Below, piece by piece: positions 1,867 through 48,181 of a stretch of 64,000 bases of DNA. The stretch comes from a virus (Duplodnaviria > Heunggongvirae > Uroviricota > Caudoviricetes), in the IMG/VR virus record IMGVR_UViG_2757320620_000001, positions 31,417 through 95,416 of that record; one strand, 5' to 3'. The translations under genes were made by a program, and so were the position numbers. How positions within the stretch are numbered: position 1 is the first letter of the stretch; each line of letters opens with the position of its first letter. The notes under the pieces were generated by a model. The model was not told the DNA's origin. It ran no database searches and saw only the letters and a list, made by a program, of their open reading frames with translations.

Positions 1867-1896
1867 GGGCAGCTCTCGCGGGCTGCCCTTTTTTTT
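1867..1896 (+). terminator. rho-independent terminator (GGGCAGC-loop-GCTGCCC + T8)
   Basis: 7 bp GC stem (1867-1873 / 1882-1888) followed by TTTTTTTT (1889-1896), placed after the ligase operon and abutting the end of repC on the other strand. Confidence 0.7.
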
Positions 1897-2998
1897 ATTG
1901 CCGTCGCCTGAGCTTCTGGATCTCCTCATCAAGGTTGACCTGGCCGGCACGGATCAACCGGCACATCGCCCGGAAGTAACCGCCGAAATTCTTGATCTGC
2001 TCGGCGCCGGCAGCCGGCCGCGCCTGCATCTGGATAACCCACACAAGGGTCGCAGCAGCCGGCACCGGGCCGATCTCGCGCCTGGCCTCCTCCCAGGCCG
2101 ACGCAGACACGCCGAACGCGCCCCGCATTCGCCCGGCAGCCGCGACAAGCTCGAGGTCGTGCCGGATCTCACCCATGAACTCCATCGCATCAGGGCAAGC
2201 CATCTTCAGGTCACGCAGATCCGTCTGCCGCGCCGGCGCCTCCTCCACATTTTCATGGCTGTTGTTACAAGACTGGTCAGGGGCATATTTGTTGCTGTCT
2301 TTGTGACGGCAGTTATTGCCGGCAGAGGCGGTATAATATCTGGATTCTGCCTCCTGCCGGAGTGCTTGCCACTGCCCGCGGAAAGGGTCGGCCGATCCCG
2401 CGCTCGACCTACGCGGCGTGACGCGCACGAGCTCCAGGGCGCGCGCCGTCAGATCTTCGATGTCGACGCTCGGGTAAACCTCTGCAAGCGTTCTGAGAGC
2501 TTCCTGGGCCGAACGCCGGTGAATGGTCAGCTCGTCGAAGGCAACGCTGCGCTCGCGCTCCATTTCCTTCAGCGCCTCGAGCCTGGCGGCAAACTCCGGC
2601 CGGCGCGCAAGGAGAGGGGAGAGGTCGAAGCCGAAGGCCCGGATGATCTGCCCGGCCGGCGAGCGCTGCGCAAACCGTTTGCCGTTCGGCGAATCCTTGG
2701 AGACGATGACGCCCTCTTCAATCAGCCGGGCGATCGCAAACCGAATGGACCGCTCCGGAATGCCGGTGCGCTCGCCGATGAACTCGTTCGACGGCCAGAC
2801 AAGGATTCGACCCTCGACCGGCTCGCCATTATAGACGCCGCAAAGCTGGTCGAGCACGAAGCGCGCCGACGCCGGCAGCCGAAGGACTCGAGCTGCCATC
2901 CTGGCTGTGTCGAAGAGGTCTTGCTTTTCAAGGCTATATGGGTCTTGGAGGGCCGGTGCTGGCCGCAGACTGCGCCACCCCGATGACTGCGCTGACAT
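1895..2998 (-). CDS. repC: RepC-like plasmid replication initiator (repABC-type RepC family)
   Basis: 367 aa minus-strand ORF. The N-terminal winged-helix region ...WPSNEFIGERTGIPERSIRFAIARLIEEGVIVSKDSPNGKRF... matches the conserved core of alpha-proteobacterial RepC as I recall it. The overlapping + strand ORF 1898..2986 is an antisense artefact. Confidence 0.6.
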   Translation of the reverse strand: MSAQSSGWRSLRPAPALQDPYSLEKQDLFDTARMAARVLRLPASARFVLDQLCGVYNGEPVEGRILVWPSNEFIGERTGIPERSIRFAIARLIEEGVIVSKDSPNGKRFAQRSPAGQIIRAFGFDLSPLLARRPEFAARLEALKEMERERSVAFDELTIHRRSAQEALRTLAEVYPSVDIEDLTARALELVRVTPRRSSAGSADPFRGQWQALRQEAESRYYTASAGNNCRHKDSNKYAPDQSCNNSHENVEEAPARQTDLRDLKMACPDAMEFMGEIRHDLELVAAAGRMRGAFGVSASAWEEARREIGPVPAAATLVWVIQMQARPAAGAEQIKNFGGYFRAMCRLIRAGQVNLDEEIQKLRRRQ

Positions 2999-29291: not shown

Positions 29292-29366
29292 GAGCTGGTG
29301 CCGGAATTGGTCACGGGACGGATTGCAAATCCGTTCATGCGGGTTCGAGTCCCGTCTAGCTCTCCA
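29292..29366 (+). tRNA. tRNA-Cys (anticodon GCA), CCA encoded
   Basis: Hand-folded cloverleaf: acceptor GAGCTGG/CTAGCTC (two G-U pairs), 3 bp D stem, anticodon stem ACGGA/TCCGT with loop TTGCAAA, 4 nt variable loop, T arm GCGGG-TTCGAGT-CCCGT, discriminator T and a 3' CCA. Confidence 0.8.
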
Positions 29367-31469: not shown

Positions 31470-31586
31470 ATGGTGCTGACCGTCCTCGGCGGCCTCTGCG
31501 CCGCAATCATCGTTTCGCTGGGCGTCATCAAGGCGCTCGAACTCATCCGCAATCGTGTGGATAACTCAAAAGGAGAAAAGAAATAA
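31470..31586 (+). CDS. unlisted small membrane protein (38 aa; MVLTVLGGLCAAIIVSLGVIKALELIRNRVDNSKGEKK)
   Basis: AAGGAGG RBS 5 nt upstream of the ATG. Its stop overlaps the SPFH gene ATG (TAATG). Confidence 0.4.
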   Translation: MVLTVLGGLCAAIIVSLGVIKALELIRNRVDNSKGEKK

Positions 31587-32440
31587 TGGGTAAGCTTGGT
31601 CTTATCATCGGCGGGATTGTCGCCGTTCTCGTGCTGTCGGTTCTCGGCGGCTCATTCTACACTGTCGATGAAGGCGAACGCGCCGTTGTCGTCAGCCAGG
31701 GCAAGATCGCCAACGTCGCCGGCCCCGGCTTCCACTGGAAGAAGCCTTTCCTCGACGATGCGCACGTCATCAGCGTCCGCACCCAGGCGCTCGAGTTCCC
31801 GGAAGAGCCCGTCTATACGGCCGATCGGCAGACTGCCACCGTGACCTTCTCCGTCAACTATGCGGCTGTGCCGGCCGACAAGGAGGTCGAGGCGCTCTAT
31901 CGCGACTTCCAGACCCTCGAAGGGCTCGAGACCCGAGCGTTGAAGCGGCAGATCCGCGAGCAGATCAAGAATGTCTTCGGCACGTTCACCGCTGACACGG
32001 CAATCCGGGAGCGCGGGCGTCTCAACACGGAAGTGGCTCGAGCGGTCGCTGACCTCGGCGTCGGCCTGGTCAAGGTCGAAGGCGTGAATATCGAGAACAT
32101 CAATTTCTCCGACGCAGTTGAGGCTGCGGCCGAACAGCGCGCCCAGGCTGAAATGAGGGTCCAGACGGAAAAACAAAACCTCGAGCGCGAAAAGGTTCTC
32201 GCCCAAACGAAGGTCACGCAGGCCCAGGCGGATGCCGATAGTCAGCTTGCCGTCGCAAAAGCCGGCGCCGAAGCCACCCGTCTTGCCGGTGAAGCTGAAG
32301 CAGCGGCGATTAAGGCCAAGTCGGAAGCTTTGCAGCAGTCGCCGAACCTGGTCGAACTGACGAAGGCCGAGCGCTGGGATGGTAAACTGCCCACGAGCTT
32401 CATTCCGGGCAGCGCAACTCCCTTTCTCAGCATCAAATAA
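31586..32440 (+). CDS. SPFH/band-7 (stomatin/prohibitin/HflKC-like) membrane protein
   Basis: N-terminal TM helix, then YTVDEGERAVVVSQGKI...GPGFHWKKPF...V..RTQ, the SPFH signature. A coiled-coil A/E/Q-rich C-terminus follows. Confidence 0.8.
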   Translation: MGKLGLIIGGIVAVLVLSVLGGSFYTVDEGERAVVVSQGKIANVAGPGFHWKKPFLDDAHVISVRTQALEFPEEPVYTADRQTATVTFSVNYAAVPADKEVEALYRDFQTLEGLETRALKRQIREQIKNVFGTFTADTAIRERGRLNTEVARAVADLGVGLVKVEGVNIENINFSDAVEAAAEQRAQAEMRVQTEKQNLEREKVLAQTKVTQAQADADSQLAVAKAGAEATRLAGEAEAAAIKAKSEALQQSPNLVELTKAERWDGKLPTSFIPGSATPFLSIK

Positions 32441-40177: not shown

Positions 40178-40470
40178 TGGCCTGGGGAGCACGCCAAGAG
40201 GAAGACGGCAGCTGGAGACTCTGTGAGCGTCGTGGGCGCACGATCACCCAATTGTCGCGTCAGCTATCGCCCGAGGTCGAAATACGTTTCCCTGGGCGCG
40301 CTATGGCCGAGCAATGCGCCCACGCGATGAACGACCACTGGGCCGAATACGATCGCACCAACCGGCGCCACCCGAACGCCTGGGCAATCGTCGATATCAT
40401 AGTTGCACACAAGGGCATCAGCCCCGCCGATCTGCAACGAGTAAAGGAATGGAAAAATGCAACATCTTGA
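40177..40470 (+). CDS. hypothetical protein (97 aa)
   Basis: TGATG-coupled. Confidence 0.4.
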   Translation: MAWGARQEEDGSWRLCERRGRTITQLSRQLSPEVEIRFPGRAMAEQCAHAMNDHWAEYDRTNRRHPNAWAIVDIIVAHKGISPADLQRVKEWKNATS

Positions 40471-41026
40471 GCCTCTCGAGGCGGGCGTCGATATCGAGAC
40501 AACTGGCCTCGAGCGTGGCGATCACCGCATCATCGAGGTCTATATCGGCCTCTATCGCGGCGACAAGCTGCTGAAGGAGTTCAATCAGCGGATCGATCCG
40601 CAGCGCTCGATCGCCAAGGAGGCGCAGGACGTCCACAAGATCAGTTCCGCCGATCTCGTTGGCATGCCGGTCTGGTCGGCGGTCGCTCCCACTGTCCACG
40701 CCTTTCTGAACAAGGCCGACAGCTGGGTGGCGCACAACGGCAATGACTTCGACTTCCCCTTCATCGCTTACGAGCTGAAGCGAGCCGGCCTGGTCATGCC
40801 GGAGAAGCCGACCGTGGACACGATGCATTTCAGCTGGGCGACGCCGGACGGCAAGAAGCCGAACCTGCGCGAGCTGTGCCTGGCCTGCGACGTGCCCTAT
40901 GACCCGAGCCTGGCGCACGCCGCGGACTACGACGTTCACAGAATGATGGAAAGCCTCTTTGCTGCGCGCCGGTTCGGCTATGTCGAGTGGCCGCAAGTCG
41001 CCGTCCAAATCCCTGCGGCTGCCTGA
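40457..41026 (+). CDS. DnaQ-like (DEDDh) 3'-5' exonuclease, Pol III epsilon-like proofreader
   Basis: Exo I DIETTGL, Exo II HNGNDFDFPFI, Exo III HAADYDVHRM. Confidence 0.75.
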   Translation: MQHLEPLEAGVDIETTGLERGDHRIIEVYIGLYRGDKLLKEFNQRIDPQRSIAKEAQDVHKISSADLVGMPVWSAVAPTVHAFLNKADSWVAHNGNDFDFPFIAYELKRAGLVMPEKPTVDTMHFSWATPDGKKPNLRELCLACDVPYDPSLAHAADYDVHRMMESLFAARRFGYVEWPQVAVQIPAAA

Positions 41027-41918: not shown

Positions 41919-41952
41919 TGACCGACGGGAATAATTCTGTTCTCGTCGGTCA
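41919..41952 (+). terminator. hairpin (TGACCGACG/CGTCGGTCA, 9 bp) after the acidic protein gene, overlapping a motif copy
   Basis: Stem 41919-41927 / 41944-41952, followed by the A/T-rich ATCATTATT. No classic U-run. Confidence 0.35.
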
Positions 41953-42315: not shown

Positions 42316-42666
42316 ATGTGGATCCACCTCACCGACGCCGAGACCTCCCTGCTTCAGGAAGCGCTCCGCGGGAACTGCACGGATATTCCCGGTCACGAGA
42401 ATGACCACGATCGTCTGTTCGACAAGGTCGAGGCTGCTGCGGCCCGGCAGCGCGAGCCGGAAGCTATTCTTGTAAGCGGCACCATCGTCTACGGCGACGA
42501 TTGCTCCGGAGTTCAGAGCGTCGCCTTTGAGCGTTACGACGCCCTGACCGACGGCAATATCAACTATGACGCCAACACGATCATGTGCCGCGTAGACGAC
42601 GGCGCATACGTCATGGGTTGGATCTACGTCTCGAACATGGAGATCGAAGATGTGGATCAATCTTGA
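42316..42666 (+). CDS. hypothetical protein, paralog family MWI[HN]L (116 aa)
   Basis: Shares its N-terminus and a GWIYVSN/AWIWVRN box with the next ORF. Confidence 0.45.
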   Translation: MWIHLTDAETSLLQEALRGNCTDIPGHENDHDRLFDKVEAAAARQREPEAILVSGTIVYGDDCSGVQSVAFERYDALTDGNINYDANTIMCRVDDGAYVMGWIYVSNMEIEDVDQS

Positions 42667-43126
42667 CGACAAGCAGATGACCGGCGTGGAGTCGGCCCTT
42701 GCTTCGAGCATCAGCCGTTACCGCGAGGCGCTCGACACGCTGATGAACGGCAACCAGGCGCTGAATGCCAGCGCGATCAGCGATATCACCAAGGCCAAGG
42801 ATGAGCTGCAGGCGATCCTCGATCGCTTCGGCAAGGCCCGCGCTGAATTCGATCCGGCCGATCCCTACCGCGCCTACCTGCAGACCCAGGCCGACGATGA
42901 AATGGAAGTCGACGATGACGCCGTCGTTTCGCCTGGCAGTGATCCTGGCGCCTTTGTCCAGGCTTGGATCTGGGTGCGCAACGACGAGGCCGGCGTTCAG
43001 GACGAGGACGATGAAGATGCCTGTCGCGACTGCGGCGCGCACTACGAGGACGGTGGCGACGGTTACAACGGGCGCTGCCCGGACTGCGCCGACAAAGCAG
43101 AAGAGGAAGGACGCGCCGATGACTGA
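42650..43126 (+). CDS. hypothetical protein, paralog of 42316..42666, with a C-terminal CxxC...CxxC zinc ribbon
   Basis: CRDCGAHYEDGGDGYNGRCPDC. Confidence 0.45.
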   Translation: MWINLDDKQMTGVESALASSISRYREALDTLMNGNQALNASAISDITKAKDELQAILDRFGKARAEFDPADPYRAYLQTQADDEMEVDDDAVVSPGSDPGAFVQAWIWVRNDEAGVQDEDDEDACRDCGAHYEDGGDGYNGRCPDCADKAEEEGRADD

Positions 43127-43400: not shown

Positions 43401-43531
43401 CGGCAGTCGGCCAATACGACCCAAAGCTCGGGCGCGACCGCACCCATAGCGACGATTTTTACGATCACCGCAAACTGGTCCAGGAGCGCATCACTGACGC
43501 CCTGCGCCGTGAAAAGGAAGGAAAGAAGTGA
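43397..43531 (+). CDS. hypothetical protein (44 aa)
   Basis: ATGA-coupled. Confidence 0.25.
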   Translation: MTAVGQYDPKLGRDRTHSDDFYDHRKLVQERITDALRREKEGKK

Positions 43532-44985
43532 GCAATATCTCTGGGAAGACCCTCGTCGCGTGGGGCCTCGAGCCTGGCGCCTGGTTCAAGGACGCTCTGC
43601 CAGTCGCCAATGCGATGCGCGCCGAGGGCAAGACCGATCGCCAGATCATCGACCACCTCTTCACGCTGCGCGTCATGCCCAACGTGACTGAAGGCGTGCC
43701 GCTGCGCACGAACTCCATCCCGTTCGGTCGCTTCATCGAGCCGGAGAGCGAGGACGAGATCCTAAACACTGCGTCGGTCATTGCGCACATGGATGCGCTG
43801 CTGCGCACCCCGACGATCGTCAAGGGCGCGGTTATGCCTGACGCCTGCCCTTCCGGCAGCCAGATGGGCACGATTCCCGTCGGTGGCGTCGTGGCGACCA
43901 AAGACGCGATCCATCCGGGCTTCCACTCGGCCGATATCTGCTGCTCCGTCGCCATGAGCGTCTTCAAGCGCAACAACGACACCGGCAACGTCATGACCGC
44001 GGCGATGAAAGCGACCCACTTTGGTCCCGGCGCCCGGCCGGACAGCAAGGATATCCCGTCGGCCTTCACGCCGATCCTCGGCCAGATCATCGCCAAGTTC
44101 GACAGCAACCCGTTCCTGCGCGGCCTCGAGGATATCGCGGTCGAGCACTTCATGACCCAGGGTGACGGCAATCACTTCCTGTTCGTCGGCGAGCTGGAGA
44201 GCACGAAGCAGATGGCGATCGTCACGCATCACGGCTCGCGCGGCCTCGGCGCCCAGCTCTACAAGCGCGGCAAGCGGGTCGCAGAGAAGCACACGCGCAT
44301 CGTCGCGCCGCGCGTCCCGCTGCACAACGCCTGGATCGACGCCAACAGCGAAGACGGCCAGGCCTACTGGGACGCCTTGCAGATCATCCGGCTGTGGACG
44401 AAATACAATCACTTCGGCATCCACCAGCTGATCTCGCACTATCTCGGCAACGCGATTGTCGACCAGGTCTGGAACGAGCACAATTTCGTCTTCCGGCGCG
44501 CCGACGGGCTCTACTACCACGGCAAGGGCGCGACGCCCTCCTATGACGGCTTTGCCGCTGATGACCAGGGTCTGACGCTGATCCCGCTCAACATGGCGCA
44601 GCCGATCCTCGTCACCAAGCACGCCAACAACGAGGACGCGCTCGGCTTTGCCCCGCACGGCGCCGGCCGCAATCTGTCACGCACGGCGCACCTGAAGCGC
44701 CTGGCAGCTGCATACGGCTCTGACGACCGCGGCTTGAGCCCGCGCGACGTGTCGACCCAGATGGTCAAGGAGACGGCCGGCCTCGACGTGCGCTTCTACA
44801 CCGGCTTTGCCGACCCGTCGGAGTTCCCGTCTGCCTATAAGAGCGCCGACCAGGTGCAGGCGCAGATCAAGCAGCACGGCCTGGCCGAGGTTGTCGATCG
44901 CGTTCTGCCCAAGGGCTCGATCATGGCCGGCGAGATGAAGTGGCAGCGCGCCAAGAAAAAGAAGCCCGAGGTCGTCGCCTCGTAA
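43528..44985 (+). CDS. rtcB: RtcB-family RNA 3'-phosphate ligase
   Basis: Conserved RtcB metal- and GMP-binding residues in context: VMPDACPSG, DICCSV, HHGSRGLG, GDGNHFLF, APHGAGRN. Length 485 aa. Confidence 0.75.
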   Translation: MSNISGKTLVAWGLEPGAWFKDALPVANAMRAEGKTDRQIIDHLFTLRVMPNVTEGVPLRTNSIPFGRFIEPESEDEILNTASVIAHMDALLRTPTIVKGAVMPDACPSGSQMGTIPVGGVVATKDAIHPGFHSADICCSVAMSVFKRNNDTGNVMTAAMKATHFGPGARPDSKDIPSAFTPILGQIIAKFDSNPFLRGLEDIAVEHFMTQGDGNHFLFVGELESTKQMAIVTHHGSRGLGAQLYKRGKRVAEKHTRIVAPRVPLHNAWIDANSEDGQAYWDALQIIRLWTKYNHFGIHQLISHYLGNAIVDQVWNEHNFVFRRADGLYYHGKGATPSYDGFAADDQGLTLIPLNMAQPILVTKHANNEDALGFAPHGAGRNLSRTAHLKRLAAAYGSDDRGLSPRDVSTQMVKETAGLDVRFYTGFADPSEFPSAYKSADQVQAQIKQHGLAEVVDRVLPKGSIMAGEMKWQRAKKKKPEVVAS

Positions 44986-45015
44986 GGCGAGATATAACGT
45001 TTAAGCAACAGACCA

Positions 45016-45048
45016 AGGCGGCGCATCCCAGGCGCCGCCTTTCTCATG
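45016..45048 (+). terminator. rho-independent terminator after rtcB (AGGCGGCGC-loop-GCGCCGCCT + TTTCTCATGTT)
   Basis: 9 bp GC stem (45016-45024 / 45032-45040) followed by a T-rich tail. Confidence 0.55.
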
Positions 45049-45157
45049 TTCAGATAGCATTCATGCAATATGTTGCATATACCGCCGACGTGCTCCAGTA
45101 GAGCGCCTAGTAATAATGCGCGATAATTCTTCTGTTATTCAACGGAGAGCTTTGCGC

Positions 45158-45451
45158 ATGGCATTTATATACGATGAAAGCGTTCGCGGCAGCGCCAGCA
45201 ATATTTCCATCGACAAAATGGACGGCACAAAAGCGTATCTGCGCCACTATGAAAATAAGCTGACGCTGACGTTCTTTGCCGAGCGCGGATCGCGGCTCGA
45301 GCGTTGGCAGGCGGAAAAAGAGCTGGTGATATGTGAGCGCAAACTGAAGTTCTGGGAAAAACATCCTAACTTCGTGGGTGCTTTGGCGCGCGCAGGCATG
45401 GAGAAGCTCAACCATGACTGGAAAGGAAGGGGCGCTATGCCGCGCCCCTAG
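45158..45451 (+). CDS. hypothetical protein (97 aa), lower-GC codon usage
   Basis: ATG 45158 with an AACGGAGAG RBS. Lies in an AT-richer island. Confidence 0.4.
   Translation: MAFIYDESVRGSASNISIDKMDGTKAYLRHYENKLTLTFFAERGSRLERWQAEKELVICERKLKFWEKHPNFVGALARAGMEKLNHDWKGRGAMPRP
45429..45448. terminator. bidirectional hairpin between convergent genes (GGGGCGC-TATGCC-GCGCCCC)
   Basis: 7 bp GC stem between the 3' ends of 45158..45451 (+) and 45464..45694 (-). Confidence 0.35.
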
Positions 45452-45463
45452 CCTGCAGGGGTT

Positions 45464-45694
45464 TTAGGCGGCGATTGTGAGGTTGTCGGCGAGGCCTGAT
45501 TGCTGATAAGCGGGGGAAAGGTTCGCGCCGAAAATGACCAGCTCTCTCGTTGCATCCTCAAGGCCGAAGGACGATTGCGCCTCGTAGCCGGGTAAATCGA
45601 ATTCTATGCCGCGCTCTTCGAAGAACCGAGCCGCGTGCTCGAGGAGGGAGGCTTTTAGGTCATGCGCGATTTCGTCAAAGGCTCGCCGGGTCAT
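45464..45694 (-). CDS. hypothetical protein (76 aa), one of the few minus-strand genes
   Basis: Not shadowed by a + strand gene. Flanked by an AT-rich non-coding stretch (45695-45959). Confidence 0.4.
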   Translation of the reverse strand: MTRRAFDEIAHDLKASLLEHAARFFEERGIEFDLPGYEAQSSFGLEDATRELVIFGANLSPAYQQSGLADNLTIAA

Positions 45695-45959
45695 TCCTGT
45701 ATTTCCTTTTCATCATGTAACGCTCTTAGGACTTCATTCCTAAGCTACCATGGGGTGATCACGCAACCCAACATTTTCTCTTGTGTGGAGAGAGGCACAG
45801 AACTTGTGCAACCGTCAGATAGCCCAGGGCGAATCGGCACACAAGCAGAACCGCTAAAATTCTCATGCATCCCGATGTCTAACTAACTATTCTAACTTAG
45901 TCACTAAACAACTTTTAGGTAACACCATCCCTAAAAGTAATGAGTAGGAAAGGAATAAA

Positions 45960-46286
45960 ATGATCACCAACGCCCTGGAGAAAATGACGGCTGAAATCGG
46001 GCGGGAGCCCGCTGCACGGGCATTTCACCTCAACAATGGCGACTGTGGGTTGGTCATCCGTAAGGATGGAACGACCGAAATGTTCCAGCAAGGTTTTTGC
46101 ATAGCTGGTTTGCAGCAAACGCATAGCACAATGTCGGCAGAAGACAAACAGGCGCTGCTCAATGGACAGACGCTGATGGTGCTTAGCATTGTTGCTGCGT
46201 CGCCGGAACTGCAAAGTTCGATTCTCGCCGTCGCAATCAACCAGGGGGCGGTCGATATTCCCACCGCAAACGCCAATGCCGCATAG
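45960..46286 (+). CDS. hypothetical protein (108 aa)
   Basis: GGAAAGGAATAAA RBS. Confidence 0.45.
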   Translation: MITNALEKMTAEIGREPAARAFHLNNGDCGLVIRKDGTTEMFQQGFCIAGLQQTHSTMSAEDKQALLNGQTLMVLSIVAASPELQSSILAVAINQGAVDIPTANANAA

Positions 46287-47587: not shown

Positions 47588-47612
47588 GATAAATAAACAT
47601 TGATTGATTATC
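47588..47612. promoter_or_regulatory. motif copy (GATAAATAAACATTGATTGATTATC)
   Basis: Upstream of the alarmone hydrolase gene. Confidence 0.45.
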
Positions 47613-47623
47613 AGGAGATCAGG

Positions 47624-48181
47624 ATGGTTTACTCGATCTATGGCGCGCAGATGATTGCGCGCGCCCAGGCCTTTGCGACTGCCGCGCATCATGCGATCGA
47701 CCAGCGCCGCAAATTCACCAACGAGCCCTATATCGTCCATCCTGGCGCCGTTGCCGCGATCATTCAGGCGCTGCCGGATCACACCTGGCAGCAGGTCGTT
47801 TGGGCTTGGCTGCACGACACGGTCGAGGACACGGCGATCACGCTCGATGTCGTCGAGAAGGCCTTCAACCACGAGATCCGCTATGGCCTCGAATACCTGA
47901 CCAATGTCGAGCGCGAGGCCGGCAACCGTAAGCATCGGCACCGGTTGAACGTCGACCGGCTGGCGCGCGCGCCTGCCCGCGTCCAGACCGTCAAGATCGC
48001 CGACATCAAGGACAACACCAAGAACATCGCCGCGCTCGGCGGTTCGTTCGGCCCGGTCTTCCTCGAGGAGAAGCTCGACGCGATGATCGCTCTCACCTTC
48101 GGCGACCAGGTGCTTTGGTCGCTGACGATGGATCAAATTCTCAAACAGAAAGAGGAGATCGCCCATGCCAAAGAAGCGTGA
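47624..48181 (+). CDS. small alarmone hydrolase (SpoT/Mesh1-like HD domain, (p)ppGpp hydrolase)
   Basis: H-x3-VA...LHDTVEDT is the (p)ppGpp-hydrolase HD signature. There is no synthetase domain. AGGAGATCAGG RBS. Preceded by the motif at 47588-47612. Confidence 0.6.
   Translation: MVYSIYGAQMIARAQAFATAAHHAIDQRRKFTNEPYIVHPGAVAAIIQALPDHTWQQVVWAWLHDTVEDTAITLDVVEKAFNHEIRYGLEYLTNVEREAGNRKHRHRLNVDRLARAPARVQTVKIADIKDNTKNIAALGGSFGPVFLEEKLDAMIALTFGDQVLWSLTMDQILKQKEEIAHAKEA

Follow-up and report, generated by a model that had tools for sequence, protein, structure and literature searches.

The three-step chemistry by which RtcB enzymes seal RNA is established for the family. RtcB enzymes also carry out programmed ligation, in tRNA splicing and in XBP1/HAC1 splicing, and the joining or capping of DNA 3'-phosphates in vitro has been ascribed to E. 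coli RtcB and Myxococcus RtcB3. In the RtcB2-PrfH module, an RtcB paralog repairs 16S rRNA that has been cut by colicin E3 (PMC9304027, PMC9223846). A system consisting of RtcB, a Band-7 protein and a b7a-tRNA was predicted by Burroughs and Aravind in 2016, as described in a preprint (bioRxiv 10.1101/312249). In phages, comparative genomics has read RtcB as repairing tRNA cut by RNases (Iyer et al. 2021, PMC7824862). We found no experimental papers in the literature, and no activity, substrate or phenotype data, on any phage RtcB.

The window (the whole stretch of DNA that was analyzed, 64 kb) matches the genome of Rhizobium phage RHEph10 (JX483881.1 / NC_034248.1) with 100% identity, which confirms its phage context. 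The identity of the RtcB gene, gp146, was already known: the phage genome is published, RefSeq names the product "tRNA splicing ligase", and the family is catalogued as phrog_1075. A first-pass annotation made from the sequence had placed an RtcB gene here, and the open reading frame was exactly as claimed (Table 1). The four RtcB motifs that it quoted are present: MPDAC (residues 103-107), GDGNHFLF (212-219), HHGSRGLG (234-241) and HGAGRN (377-382). The enzyme call was borne out by the Pfam profile PF01139 (RtcB), which matched gp146 far better than chance would allow, at 99.7 bits (cut-off 27; E = 3e-28), and catalytic residues, fold and family all agree with it. The phrog_1075 profile ('tRNA splicing ligase') matched residues 2-485 with an E value of 2.4e-107, and the structures of P. 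horikoshii and human RtcB were matched by sequence with E values of ~1e-7.

Table 1. Positions in the window of gp146, its parts and other features discussed in the text.
Feature	Position	Strand	Evidence
gp146, RtcB-family 3'-phosphate RNA ligase; 485 aa, GTG start	43528..44985 (including stop codon)	+	ORF, Pfam, phrog_1075, RefSeq, AF2 model
gp146 N-terminal three-helix domain, aa 1-55	43528..43692	+	no counterpart in E. coli RtcB alignment; model helices
gp146 catalytic core: D105 (MPD), D136/C139, N215/H216, H234/R238, H318, H377/R381 (HGAGR nucleophile motif)	43834..44673	+	alignments with E. coli and P. horikoshii RtcB
gp146 R385, just past the catalytic core	44680-44682	+	alignment with E. 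coli RtcB
Shine-Dalgarno-like AAGGAAGGAAAG and GTGA overlap of gp147 stop and RtcB start	43511..43531	+	sequence read directly, gene coordinates
Terminator-like hairpin after gp152	41919..41952	+	terminator scan
tRNA-Cys(GCA), sole tRNA of the 115-kb phage genome	29292..29366	+	ARAGORN; Rfam tRNA 56.2 bits
gp165, Band-7/SPFH (prohibitin-family) protein	31586..32440	+	RefSeq annotation
gp139, stand-alone RelA/SpoT-type HD hydrolase (small-alarmone-hydrolase-like)	47600..48181	+	Pfam HD_4 E 2.9e-8; PDB matches

All essential residues of E. coli RtcB are kept in gp146 on careful alignment. E. coli D75, C78, N167, H168 and H185 correspond to gp146 D136, C139, N215, H216 and H234, and E. coli R189, H281, H337, R341 and R345 correspond to gp146 R238, H318, H377, R381 and R385. 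Similarly, D65, D95, C98, H234 and Y451 of P. horikoshii RtcB align with D105, D136, C139, H234 and Y437. D105 and the ten gp146 residues aligned with those of E. coli were invariant in an alignment of 58 relatives, which had 81 invariant columns. These invariant columns, together with the retention of every catalytic residue, speak for an active enzyme kept under purifying selection. An AF2 model of gp146 (pLDDT 90.7) was most similar by Foldseek to P. horikoshii and human RtcB (best E 1e-23, TM 0.60, over ~465 columns), and all 16 PDB matches with E ≤ 0.001 were RtcB. The predicted structure shows the RtcB fold and, from the alignments, gp146 is judged to be a genuine RtcB RNA-repair ligase with intact catalytic residues.

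The best-supported function for gp146 is the repair of RNA breaks that have 2',3'-cyclic-phosphate and 5'-OH ends. We infer, as rather probable, that gp146 is an active stand-alone RtcB ligase, and that it most likely reseals tRNA or other translation RNAs cut by metal-independent RNases. If gp146 follows the chemistry of its family, the 2',3'-cyclic phosphate would be opened to a 3'-phosphate beforehand. His377 would take GMP from GTP, with Mn2+ held by D105, D136, C139, H216, H234 and H318, and the GMP would then move from His377 to the RNA 3'-phosphate. Attack by the 5'-OH end would reseal the break. Candidate cutters are HEPN anticodon nucleases (PrrC/RloC type), colicin- or CDI-type tRNases and MazF-type toxins. 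By resealing RNA, gp146 could keep translation going in lytic growth and possibly in plasmid-like carriage. A proposed counter-defense role against host tRNA-cutting systems is plausible and is the standard reading. The first-pass annotation had also proposed VapC-like tRNases. Such PIN nucleases need metal ions and should in general produce 5'-P and 3'-OH ends, which are not joined by RtcB, and so they are an unsuitable class of target. It also counts against the repair reading that several recently described tRNA-cutting defenses use Toprim or PIN nucleases, which leave ends that RtcB cannot join.

Repair partners were sought in the whole phage genome. The absence of RtcA and archease, noted previously for the window, holds for full RHEph10 by tblastn, Pfam scan and annotation. 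Neither gene is annotated, tblastn with E. coli RtcA gave nothing better than E = 0.56, and a Pfam scan of the 64 'hypothetical' proteins revealed no archease or other RNA-end enzyme (DUF3768 and WGR only). Ro60 and Rnl1 were not found in RHEph10 by tblastn, nor was Pnkp found there; RtcR is absent from its annotation, and no PrfH or release-factor-like gene is annotated. At the Rfam gathering threshold the genome has no YrlA/Y RNA or other structured RNA besides the tRNA, and near RtcB the window has no structured RNA at Rfam E values up to 1. We counted the lack of RtcA, archease, Ro60 and YrlA, the partners of many cellular RtcBs, against a repair role. PADLOC gave no match for RtcB, the Band-7 protein, the HD hydrolase or the neighboring genes. 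On the host side, and again counting against this role, no plasmid of host CFN42 was among the RtcB matches, and a sampled 50-kb stretch of host plasmid p42f contained DNA-directed, not tRNA-directed, defense genes.

gp146 belongs to a distinct alphaproteobacterial and phage subfamily of RtcB with an extra N-terminal helical domain. We found 439 phage records that encode a relative, 84 of them with query coverage of at least 80%; in sister Rhizobium phages the relative is annotated as an RNA-splicing ligase. The full-length form with the N-terminal domain occurs mainly in phages of Alphaproteobacteria and Bacteroidota (Cellulophaga, Tenacibaculum). RHEph10 RtcB falls in a phage-only clade of 14, and mycobacteriophage RtcBs have <30% identity to gp146. 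The nearest cellular relatives are ~50% identical and have the N-terminal domain too. In Rhizobium, Mesorhizobium, Shinella, Rhodobacterales and other bacteria their genes immediately follow Ro60 and a YrlA Y-RNA-like gene, and this Ro60 and YrlA RNA-repair operon context was present at 35 or more of 80 bacterial genome loci of the subfamily. In R. phaseoli, an Rnl1-type ligase is also nearby, and ~50 Rhizobium megaplasmids carry a Ro60/YrlA-linked copy.

The N-terminal domain is modeled as three helices (residues 6-11, 20-32 and 37-54). Among the N-termini of the family, 12 of 32 matched positions ~103-133 of PF13735, the tail of class-II CCA-adding enzymes, in register and below threshold; the best score was 22.6 bits (cut-off 27), and the RHEph10 sequence itself had no match. 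The top Foldseek match of the domain was also a CCA-adding enzyme (1miv_A), with an E value of 1.6 that alone is not significant. A PDB profile search with the domain returned designed helical proteins only, which we judged spurious, and did not recover CCA enzymes. The predicted resemblance of the subfamily domain to the CCA-enzyme tail is below threshold but reproducible, and such a domain probably helps to hold tRNA or tRNA-like RNA.

Among 80 viral loci, RtcB is a solo mobile accessory gene found in very different phage backbones. When ORFs within 10 kb were clustered across these loci, there was no universal RtcB neighbor, although gene order is shared within the RHEph10-like lineage. A 'gp148' family that seemed to occur at 13 loci just upstream of RtcB proved to be an artifact of out-of-frame overlap; the slot is occupied in relatives by an unrelated 116-aa phrog_2072 protein. 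tRNA genes were within 10 kb of RtcB at 19 of 60 viral loci (the first 60 scanned). In RHEph10, RtcB closes a run of small overlapping accessory genes, and through the GTGA overlap its translation is coupled to that of gp147. The hairpin after gp152 is weakly suggested as the upstream boundary of a transcription unit from gp151 to RtcB, because the number of such sites equals that expected from shuffled sequence. The promoter scan gave no sigma-70-like sites. The first-pass annotation had not included the Band-7 gene or the HD hydrolase, nor had it covered the N-terminal domain, the association of the subfamily with Ro60 and YrlA, or the phage-plasmid lifestyle.

That lifestyle bears on who might benefit from RtcB. 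RHEph10 encodes RepC, ParA and ParB and has a relative in the plasmid-prophage pLM21S1 (PMC5537653; PMC7969092). Two plasmids from complete genomes, one of Pararhizobium qamdonense (115,652 bp) and one of R. beringeri (119,417 bp), carry RtcB with 68-71% identity. The gene is also found in rhizobial assemblies on many contigs of ~115-120 kb; RHEph10-like elements thus occur also as ~115-kb plasmids. These observations are consistent with RtcB mainly benefiting the carrier cell and not the lytic cycle, as an immunity or fitness gene against resident toxin-antitoxin RNases or the tRNase or rRNase toxins of competitors (bacteriocins, contact-dependent or secreted effectors). The protection that cellular RtcB2-PrfH gives against colicin E3 (PMC9223846) points the same way. 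However, RHEph10 was obtained as a phage that forms plaques, and its RtcB belongs to a long block of genes on one strand, nucleotide-metabolism and rII genes among them, that is typical of lytic-cycle expression. The subfamily is also found in clearly lytic-type backbones such as T7-like Mesorhizobium phage Lo5R7ANS. We consider it unlikely that the carrier is the main beneficiary. In chemistry this reading overlaps with repair during phage growth, and the two differ only in who benefits and when.

The tRNA-Cys was correctly located by the first-pass annotation (the ARAGORN prediction and the Rfam match agree), which had suggested that RtcB and this tRNA together reflect adaptation to tRNA-targeting host defense or codon supply. 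We found no support for the pairing. The two genes belong to separate gene blocks at a distance of 14 kb, and Cys codons make up 0.72% of codons in annotated phage genes and 0.77% in the host plasmid sample (Fisher p = 0.59). Annotated genes were used for this comparison; self-called ORFs had taken in ~60 antisense shadow ORFs. Because Cys usage matches the host sample, a link between the tRNA and RtcB is without support, and we rejected codon supply. The tRNA looks canonical (U73, GCA anticodon, encoded CCA) and is uninterrupted. In two relatives tRNA-Cys is 87-88 nt long, and the extra 12 nt are in the variable arm, not in an intron, so that tRNA splicing was rejected as well.

A different role for the tRNA is conceivable if RtcB, gp165 and tRNA-Cys form a dispersed repair system of the b7a-tRNA type, in which the tRNA, beyond any part in decoding, would be an RNA cofactor, scaffold or decoy docked by the N-terminal domain of RtcB. 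A Band-7 gene is within 10 kb of subfamily RtcB on the same strand at 11 of 80 viral and 4 of 80 genome loci, often adjacent, and adjoins RtcB in several phage and Bradyrhizobium loci. In the Bradyrhizobium loci, tRNA-like genes with odd anticodon loops lie ~400 nt upstream of Band-7, and one viral locus (L046) has the order Band-7, tRNA-Gln, RtcB, tRNA-Pro. In RHEph10, tRNA-Cys is 2.2 kb upstream of gp165, and it is kept across RHEph10-like phages in spite of there being no Cys codon excess. Such a system has been predicted, although the same preprint describes the b7a-tRNA as never experimentally validated (bioRxiv 10.1101/312249). Against it, RtcB is 11 kb from gp165 and 14 kb from tRNA-Cys and not adjacent to either, the ordinary-looking tRNA-Cys is not homologous to the b7a-type genes of Bradyrhizobium, and a search of the gap between Band-7 and RtcB at three phage loci with adjacent genes (L020, L035, L047) revealed no tRNA-like element. 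Co-retention inside one phage lineage is weak evidence. We find the three-part system quite unlikely; gp165 may be a cofactor in a repair set of the RtcB-Band-7-tRNA type whose genes are dispersed in RHEph10.

Downstream of RtcB by 2.6 kb is the HD hydrolase gp139, which matched Rel, SpoT and MESH1 hydrolase domains in the PDB with E values of 1e-10 to 1e-9. In Bradyrhizobium phage BDU-MI-1 an HD hydrolase gene is directly upstream of RtcB and overlaps it, and an HD hydrolase was within 10 kb of RtcB at 10 of 80 viral loci, indicating a loose association of SpoT-type HD hydrolases with RtcB among related phages. A speculative and rather improbable proposal would bring these genes together. The subfamily N-terminal domain would dock tRNA-shaped RNA (in bacteria, YrlA or Band-7-associated tRNA-like RNA; in RHEph10, tRNA-Cys), and RtcB, gp165 and gp139 would be a dispersed toolkit guarding tRNA against anticodon cuts and against 3'-end pyrophosphorylation by toxic alarmone synthetases.

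Instead of countering a nuclease of the host or of competitors, RtcB could also serve RNA processing internal to the phage, resealing collateral cuts made by a phage host-shut-off RNase or joining or circularizing phage RNA. Most neighboring genes have no known function, and RtcB enzymes carry out programmed ligation in other settings. However, neither the window nor the genome revealed a metal-independent endoribonuclease, a split or intron-bearing tRNA or a structured RNA, and the one tRNA present has no interruption. The patchy spread of RtcB among otherwise unrelated phages is more in keeping with an accessory conflict gene than with a core step of processing, and we regard internal processing as very improbable. 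That gp146 acts on DNA ends by joining or capping 3'-phosphates, as RtcB enzymes do in vitro and as a genome rich in DNA-repair genes might suggest, or that it is an inactive passenger gene, is extremely improbable given the retained catalytic residues and invariant columns and, for DNA ends, the RNA-repair context of the cellular subfamily (Ro60, YrlA, Rnl1) and the likeness of the N-terminal domain to a tRNA-enzyme module.

With gp146 read as a stand-alone ligase for cut translation RNAs, the gene as it stands is ordinary and matters little, as repair and counter-defense are the textbook interpretation for phage RNA ligases. The added value is modest and lies in the context: an extra domain like that of a tRNA enzyme, Ro60/Y-RNA or Band-7 partners in bacteria, and solo occurrence in rhizobial phages and phage-plasmids. 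A solo phage RtcB with a simple plaque phenotype is a possible entry point to the substrates of Ro/Y-RNA- or Band-7-linked RtcBs.

Compared with known cellular systems, gp146 has the Pfam family, the fold, all essential residues and presumably the GTP/Mn2+ three-step sealing in common with E. coli RtcB. It differs in having 26% identity, ~55 extra N-terminal residues and MPDAC in place of MPDVH. It also stands apart from the E. coli-type RtcBA/RtcR system (68.6 bits against the NF007153 equivalog, cut-off 407), and the phage lacks RtcA and RtcR. P. horikoshii PH1602 and human RTCB are the best structural matches, and their metal ligands, His nucleophile and guanine-stacking Tyr (Y451, Y437 in gp146) are present in gp146 too. 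Identity to archaeal and metazoan RtcBs is ~20%, and the phage is without archease, the other complex subunits and a tRNA intron. For the RtcB2-PrfH module, too, gp146 falls below the cut-off (46.9 bits against TIGR03073, cut-off 271.8), and the phage annotation contains no PrfH. The cellular relatives in Ro60 (Rsr)-YrlA-RtcB operons are of the same subfamily and have the same N-terminal domain as gp146, whereas RHEph10 lacks Ro60 and YrlA. As in the predicted RtcB-Band-7-b7a-tRNA system, genes for RtcB, a Band-7/SPFH protein and a tRNA are all present in RHEph10, and there they are 2-14 kb apart.

Among phages, T4 Pnkp and Rnl1, which act on PrrC-cut tRNA-Lys, follow the same proposed logic, phage resealing of 2',3'-cyclic-phosphate/5'-OH breaks made in tRNA by a host anticodon nuclease. 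The T4 enzymes are unrelated to gp146; they heal the ends before ATP-dependent sealing, whereas RtcB joins the ends directly with GTP. Repair of tRNA by T4 has been shown experimentally, whereas the role of gp146 is predicted. The other phage RtcBs (phrog_1075; mycobacteriophage, Listeria, Bacillus and jumbo phages) have, like gp146 here, been read as tRNA repair enzymes (PMC7824862).

The 20-kb stretch around rtcB was 100% identical to Rhizobium phage RHEph10 (JX483881.1 / NC_034248.1; 115,042 bp; host R. etli CFN42), in which the ligase is gp146 (YP_009352355.1). RefSeq names the product "tRNA splicing ligase", the original record carries the remark "uncharacterized protein family UPF0027", and copies in sister Rhizobium phages are annotated as RNA-splicing ligase or RNA-2',3'-PO4:RNA-5'-OH ligase. 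We found the reading frame and all four RtcB motifs as described in the first-pass annotation, and profile searches agreed: Pfam RtcB matched at 99.7 bits (cut-off 27; E 3e-28), phrog_1075 covered residues 2-485 (E 2.4e-107), and the P. horikoshii and human RtcB chains were matched at E of about 1e-7. The RtcB assignment is correct, and already public. The start call is sound because the gp147 stop codon overlaps the gp146 start (GTGA), AAGGAAGGAAAG is located before the GTG, and homologues share the initial MSNI(S/T)GKTL. An antisense ORF of 298 aa inside rtcB was rejected as a gene; such ORFs recur in relatives solely by shadowing the conserved GC-rich rtcB coding strand.

The active site of gp146 is intact. 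From the Shuman-lab literature we take the key residues of E. coli RtcB to be D75, C78, N167, H168, H185, R189, H281, H337, R341 and R345, with H337 as the GMP-accepting histidine. In an alignment with rtcB from MG1655, these map in order to gp146 D136, C139, N215, H216, H234, R238, H318, H377, R381 and R385; the P. horikoshii chain adds D65 (D105 in gp146) and the guanine-stacking Y451 (Y437). All mapped catalytic residues were invariant among 58 relatives. The sole deviation was MPDAC instead of MPDVH, and C107 varies in the subfamily, the alphaproteobacterial and phage RtcB group to which gp146 belongs, being Met in some members. The AlphaFold model (58 sequences; mean pLDDT 90.7) matched 16 PDB structures at E ≤0.001, all of them RtcB, the best at E 1e-23 with a TM-score of about 0.60 over about 465 columns. 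RtcB enzymes join RNA by guanylylation, transfer and attack. Given the intact active site, we infer that gp146 uses this chemistry: its histidine would be guanylylated, the GMP would be moved onto the RNA 3'-phosphate, and attack by the 5'-OH would complete joining.

Features of RHEph10 and of the compared loci. Subtracting 31,416 from a record position gives the window position; coordinates with an L number are local to that numbered locus.
Feature	Coordinates	Strand	Remarks
RepC	1895..2899	-	plasmid replication gene
tRNA-Cys(GCA)	29292..29366		called by ARAGORN and Rfam
gp165, Band-7/SPFH (prohibitin-family)	31586..32440	+	2.2 kb downstream of tRNA-Cys
gp153, DEDDh (RNase T/DnaQ-type) exonuclease	40457..41026	+	PADLOC PDC-S48, E 5e-26; CRISPR-associated DEDDh, E 3e-25
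gp150	42316..42666	+	RefSeq 'gamma-glutamylcyclotransferase'
gp149	42650..43126	+	
gp146, RtcB	43528..44985	+	485 aa, GTG start
Antisense ORF, rejected	43762..44658	-	inside rtcB
Low-GC island	45000..46200		directly downstream of RtcB
ORF, 76 aa	45464..45694	-	unannotated in RefSeq
gp144	45662..45886	+	RefSeq call in low-GC island region
gp139, stand-alone RelA/SpoT-type HD hydrolase	47600..48181	+	HD_4, E 3e-8
ParA/ParB	record 102538..103179 and 106243..106989		partition genes, outside window
Bradyrhizobium tRNA-like genes	L002 5531..5603, L094 3536..3609, L095 1652..1725		upstream of Band-7 that precedes RtcB
FVFGSNLAGxHGAGAA protein	L011 9420..9770; equivalents in L010, L012-L015, L019, L029, L030, L039		phrog_2072, function unassigned
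FVFGSNLAGxHGAGAA-DUF4326 fusion	L050 17060..17806, L068 12488..13249		two distant phages
Long tRNA-Cys(GCA)	L012 119..206, L030 262..348		two related phages
Lo5R7ANS RtcB	L009 5004..6199		two consecutive ORFs
Gene set on host plasmid p42f	L170 9773..20545 (record 109773..120545)		

Relatives of gp146 were encoded in 439 phage records, 84 of which cover ≥80% of the query. We took 80 IMG/VR loci, each with 10 kb on either side, and clustered all neighbouring ORFs. There was no universal partner gene of RtcB among these clusters, and the neighbours that recur simply belong to the backbone common to the RHEph10-like lineage; the most widely kept of them, gp153, was found in 17 related viral loci (18 with RHEph10). 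Among the first 60 viral loci, scanned for tRNA genes, 19 had at least one within 10 kb of RtcB. In a neighbour-joining tree, the 14-member clade containing the RHEph10 RtcB consists of phage proteins alone and is nested within a mixture of phage, solo bacterial and Ro-linked copies.

Several other features were observed around these genes. The slot just upstream of RtcB is filled in the RHEph10-like relatives L010-L013, L015, L019 and L030 by a 116-aa protein with the motif FVFGSNLAGxHGAGAA, which had no Pfam match and lies 3-5 kb away in L014, L029 and L039, relatives of the same kind; the RHEph10 slot holds the unrelated gp148. Membership of one homology cluster and a common MWI(H/N)L start suggest that gp150 and gp149 are paralogous. 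The C-terminal end of gp149 is zinc-ribbon-like (Pfam DZR, E 0.078, below threshold), and the Pfam GGACT match behind the RefSeq name of gp150 is sub-threshold (17.4 bits vs 22.8). The island after RtcB has 47-55% GC (vs 60%), and its minus-strand ORF has minus-strand homologues in eight related viral loci (nine with RHEph10). In the T7-like Mesorhizobium phage Lo5R7ANS the divided RtcB, which is without the first ~60 residues and has a tRNA-Leu 200 nt upstream, may be a frameshift or pseudogene.

The tRNA-Cys that the first-pass annotation had paired with RtcB was recovered by both tRNA searches, and there was no second tRNA in the RHEph10 genome. Its 7-bp acceptor stem, U73, seven-base anticodon loop with GCA and encoded CCA are those of an ordinary tRNA-Cys. 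The gene is 14 kb upstream of RtcB, flanked by ribonucleotide reductase/glutaredoxin genes and thymidylate synthase, and several RHEph10-like relatives keep it, at times with tRNA-Met or tRNA-Pro. We saw no specific link to RtcB, and the pairing is unsupported. Nor does codon demand, also suggested earlier, explain the tRNA: the share of Cys codons was 0.72% in the phage (83 annotated genes; 23,712 codons) and 0.77% in the host sample (10,869 codons, from the annotated genes on 50 kb of plasmid p42f), with Fisher p 0.59. The two related phages with an 87-88-nt tRNA-Cys(GCA) have a 12-nt insertion making a long variable arm, which is unusual for tRNA-Cys.

Homologues of the Band-7 protein gp165 adjoin the RtcB subfamily, occurring within 10 kb on the same strand, often adjacent, in 11 of 80 viral and 4 of 80 genome loci (the latter Bradyrhizobium). 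This echoes the RtcB-Band-7-"b7a-tRNA" repair system predicted by Burroughs and Aravind (2016), as summarised in bioRxiv 10.1101/312249, and RtcB, Band-7 and tRNA-Cys might be joined in a system of that type. The chromosomal Bradyrhizobium tRNA-like genes fit such a reading, with unusual anticodon loops and a position about 400 nt upstream of Band-7; two are mutually homologous but differ in their anticodon loops, which are partly abnormal, and these genes are likely 'band-7-associated tRNAs'. The tRNA-Cys of RHEph10, however, shares no homology with these genes, and the Band-7-RtcB gaps of three phage loci held no tRNA-like element. We consider this arrangement improbable for RHEph10.

The HD hydrolase gp139 matched Rel/SpoT/MESH1 structures (E 1e-10 to 1e-9) and, with HD and ED motifs intact, resembles small alarmone hydrolases and MESH1. 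Stand-alone enzymes of this type lie within 10 kb of RtcB in 10 of 80 viral loci, and in Bradyrhizobium phage BDU-MI-1 a homologue directly precedes RtcB and overlaps its start. The enzyme could remove (p)ppGpp/(p)ppApp, or 3'-pyrophosphate put on tRNA by toxic alarmone synthetases. In RHEph10, tblastn found no Ro60 or Rnl1, and there was no Rfam family, YrlA included, apart from the tRNA. As first noted, RtcA was not found, and there was no archease or other RNA-end enzyme among the 64 hypothetical proteins. PADLOC models matched none of RtcB, Band-7 and the HD hydrolase, and no neighbour other than gp153.

The most probable role of gp146, we think, would be to mend breaks that metal-independent ribonucleases make in tRNA or in other RNA of the translation apparatus. 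The subfamily's association with RNA repair is consistent with such a role, as is the conduct of the gene in phages, where it is accessory and mobile; the role also agrees with the prevailing interpretation of phage RtcB (PMC7824862). We met with no experimental work on a phage RtcB in the literature. Because the ends left by tRNases of the Toprim and PIN types are expected to be unsuitable for joining by RtcB, such nucleases are not candidate targets. Counter-defence, as proposed in the first-pass annotation, is a reasonable, standard idea for this enzyme and a putative role. RepC and ParA/ParB, close relatives present in complete genomes as plasmids of 115.6 kb (Pararhizobium) and 119.4 kb (Rhizobium), with RtcB at 68-71% identity, and RHEph10-like contigs of ~115-120 kb in many rhizobial assemblies indicate that RHEph10 belongs to a phage-plasmid lineage; it is also akin to the plasmid-prophage pLM21S1. 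Thus, the ligase could be of use to the cell that carries the element, and not in the lytic cycle alone. The p42f gene set (AIPR-family protein, PD-(D/E)XK protein, Z1-domain protein and ATPase), adjoining a cytosine methyltransferase and Vsr with a HigA antitoxin nearby, looks like a defence island.

There were at least 565 relatives in species-representative genomes, mainly Rhizobiales and Rhodobacterales. At least 35 of the 80 best loci, or 46 with ORF fragments included, had a same-strand Ro60 orthologue (vWA_Ro60, E 1e-19 to 1e-20, plus TROVE) directly upstream of RtcB. A YrlA Y-RNA-like gene was present in four of six loci scanned with Rfam (RF02553, 70-94 bits), between rsr and rtcB in the three where the Ro60 ORF was mapped, and an Rnl1-type ligase is encoded as well at the locus of R. 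phaseoli ATCC 14482. A 50%-identical Ro-type copy occurs on about 50 Rhizobium megaplasmids; no CFN42 plasmid was among the 55 strong matches. Y RNAs with tRNA-like domains adjoining Ro60 and RtcB are already described (PMC4201824; bioRxiv 10.1101/312249).

Members of the subfamily have in common an N-terminal three-helix domain, about 55 residues long, which is absent from E. coli RtcB. The RHEph10 N-terminus alone had no Pfam match. PF13735 (tRNA nucleotidyltransferase domain 2) was matched below threshold by 12 of 32 family N-termini (best 22.6 bits, E 1e-4), always pairing residues ~1-30 with profile positions ~103-133. Modelled separately (pLDDT 79), the domain had the B. stearothermophilus CCA-adding enzyme as top Foldseek match and T. 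maritima CCA enzymes further down, at E-values (1.6-8) not significant alone. These two weak, independent signals agree; homology to the CCA-enzyme tail is likely but unproven, and the domain may bind tRNA. This context (the N-terminal domain, Ro60/YrlA and Band-7 partners, HD hydrolase neighbour and phage-plasmid carriage) is a useful refinement and not a discovery. With only 26% identity to E. coli RtcB, and scores far under the cut-offs for NCBIfam equivalog NF007153 (68.6 vs 407) and PrfH-linked RtcB (TIGR03073; 46.9 vs 271.8), gp146 falls in an RtcB subfamily separate from both.
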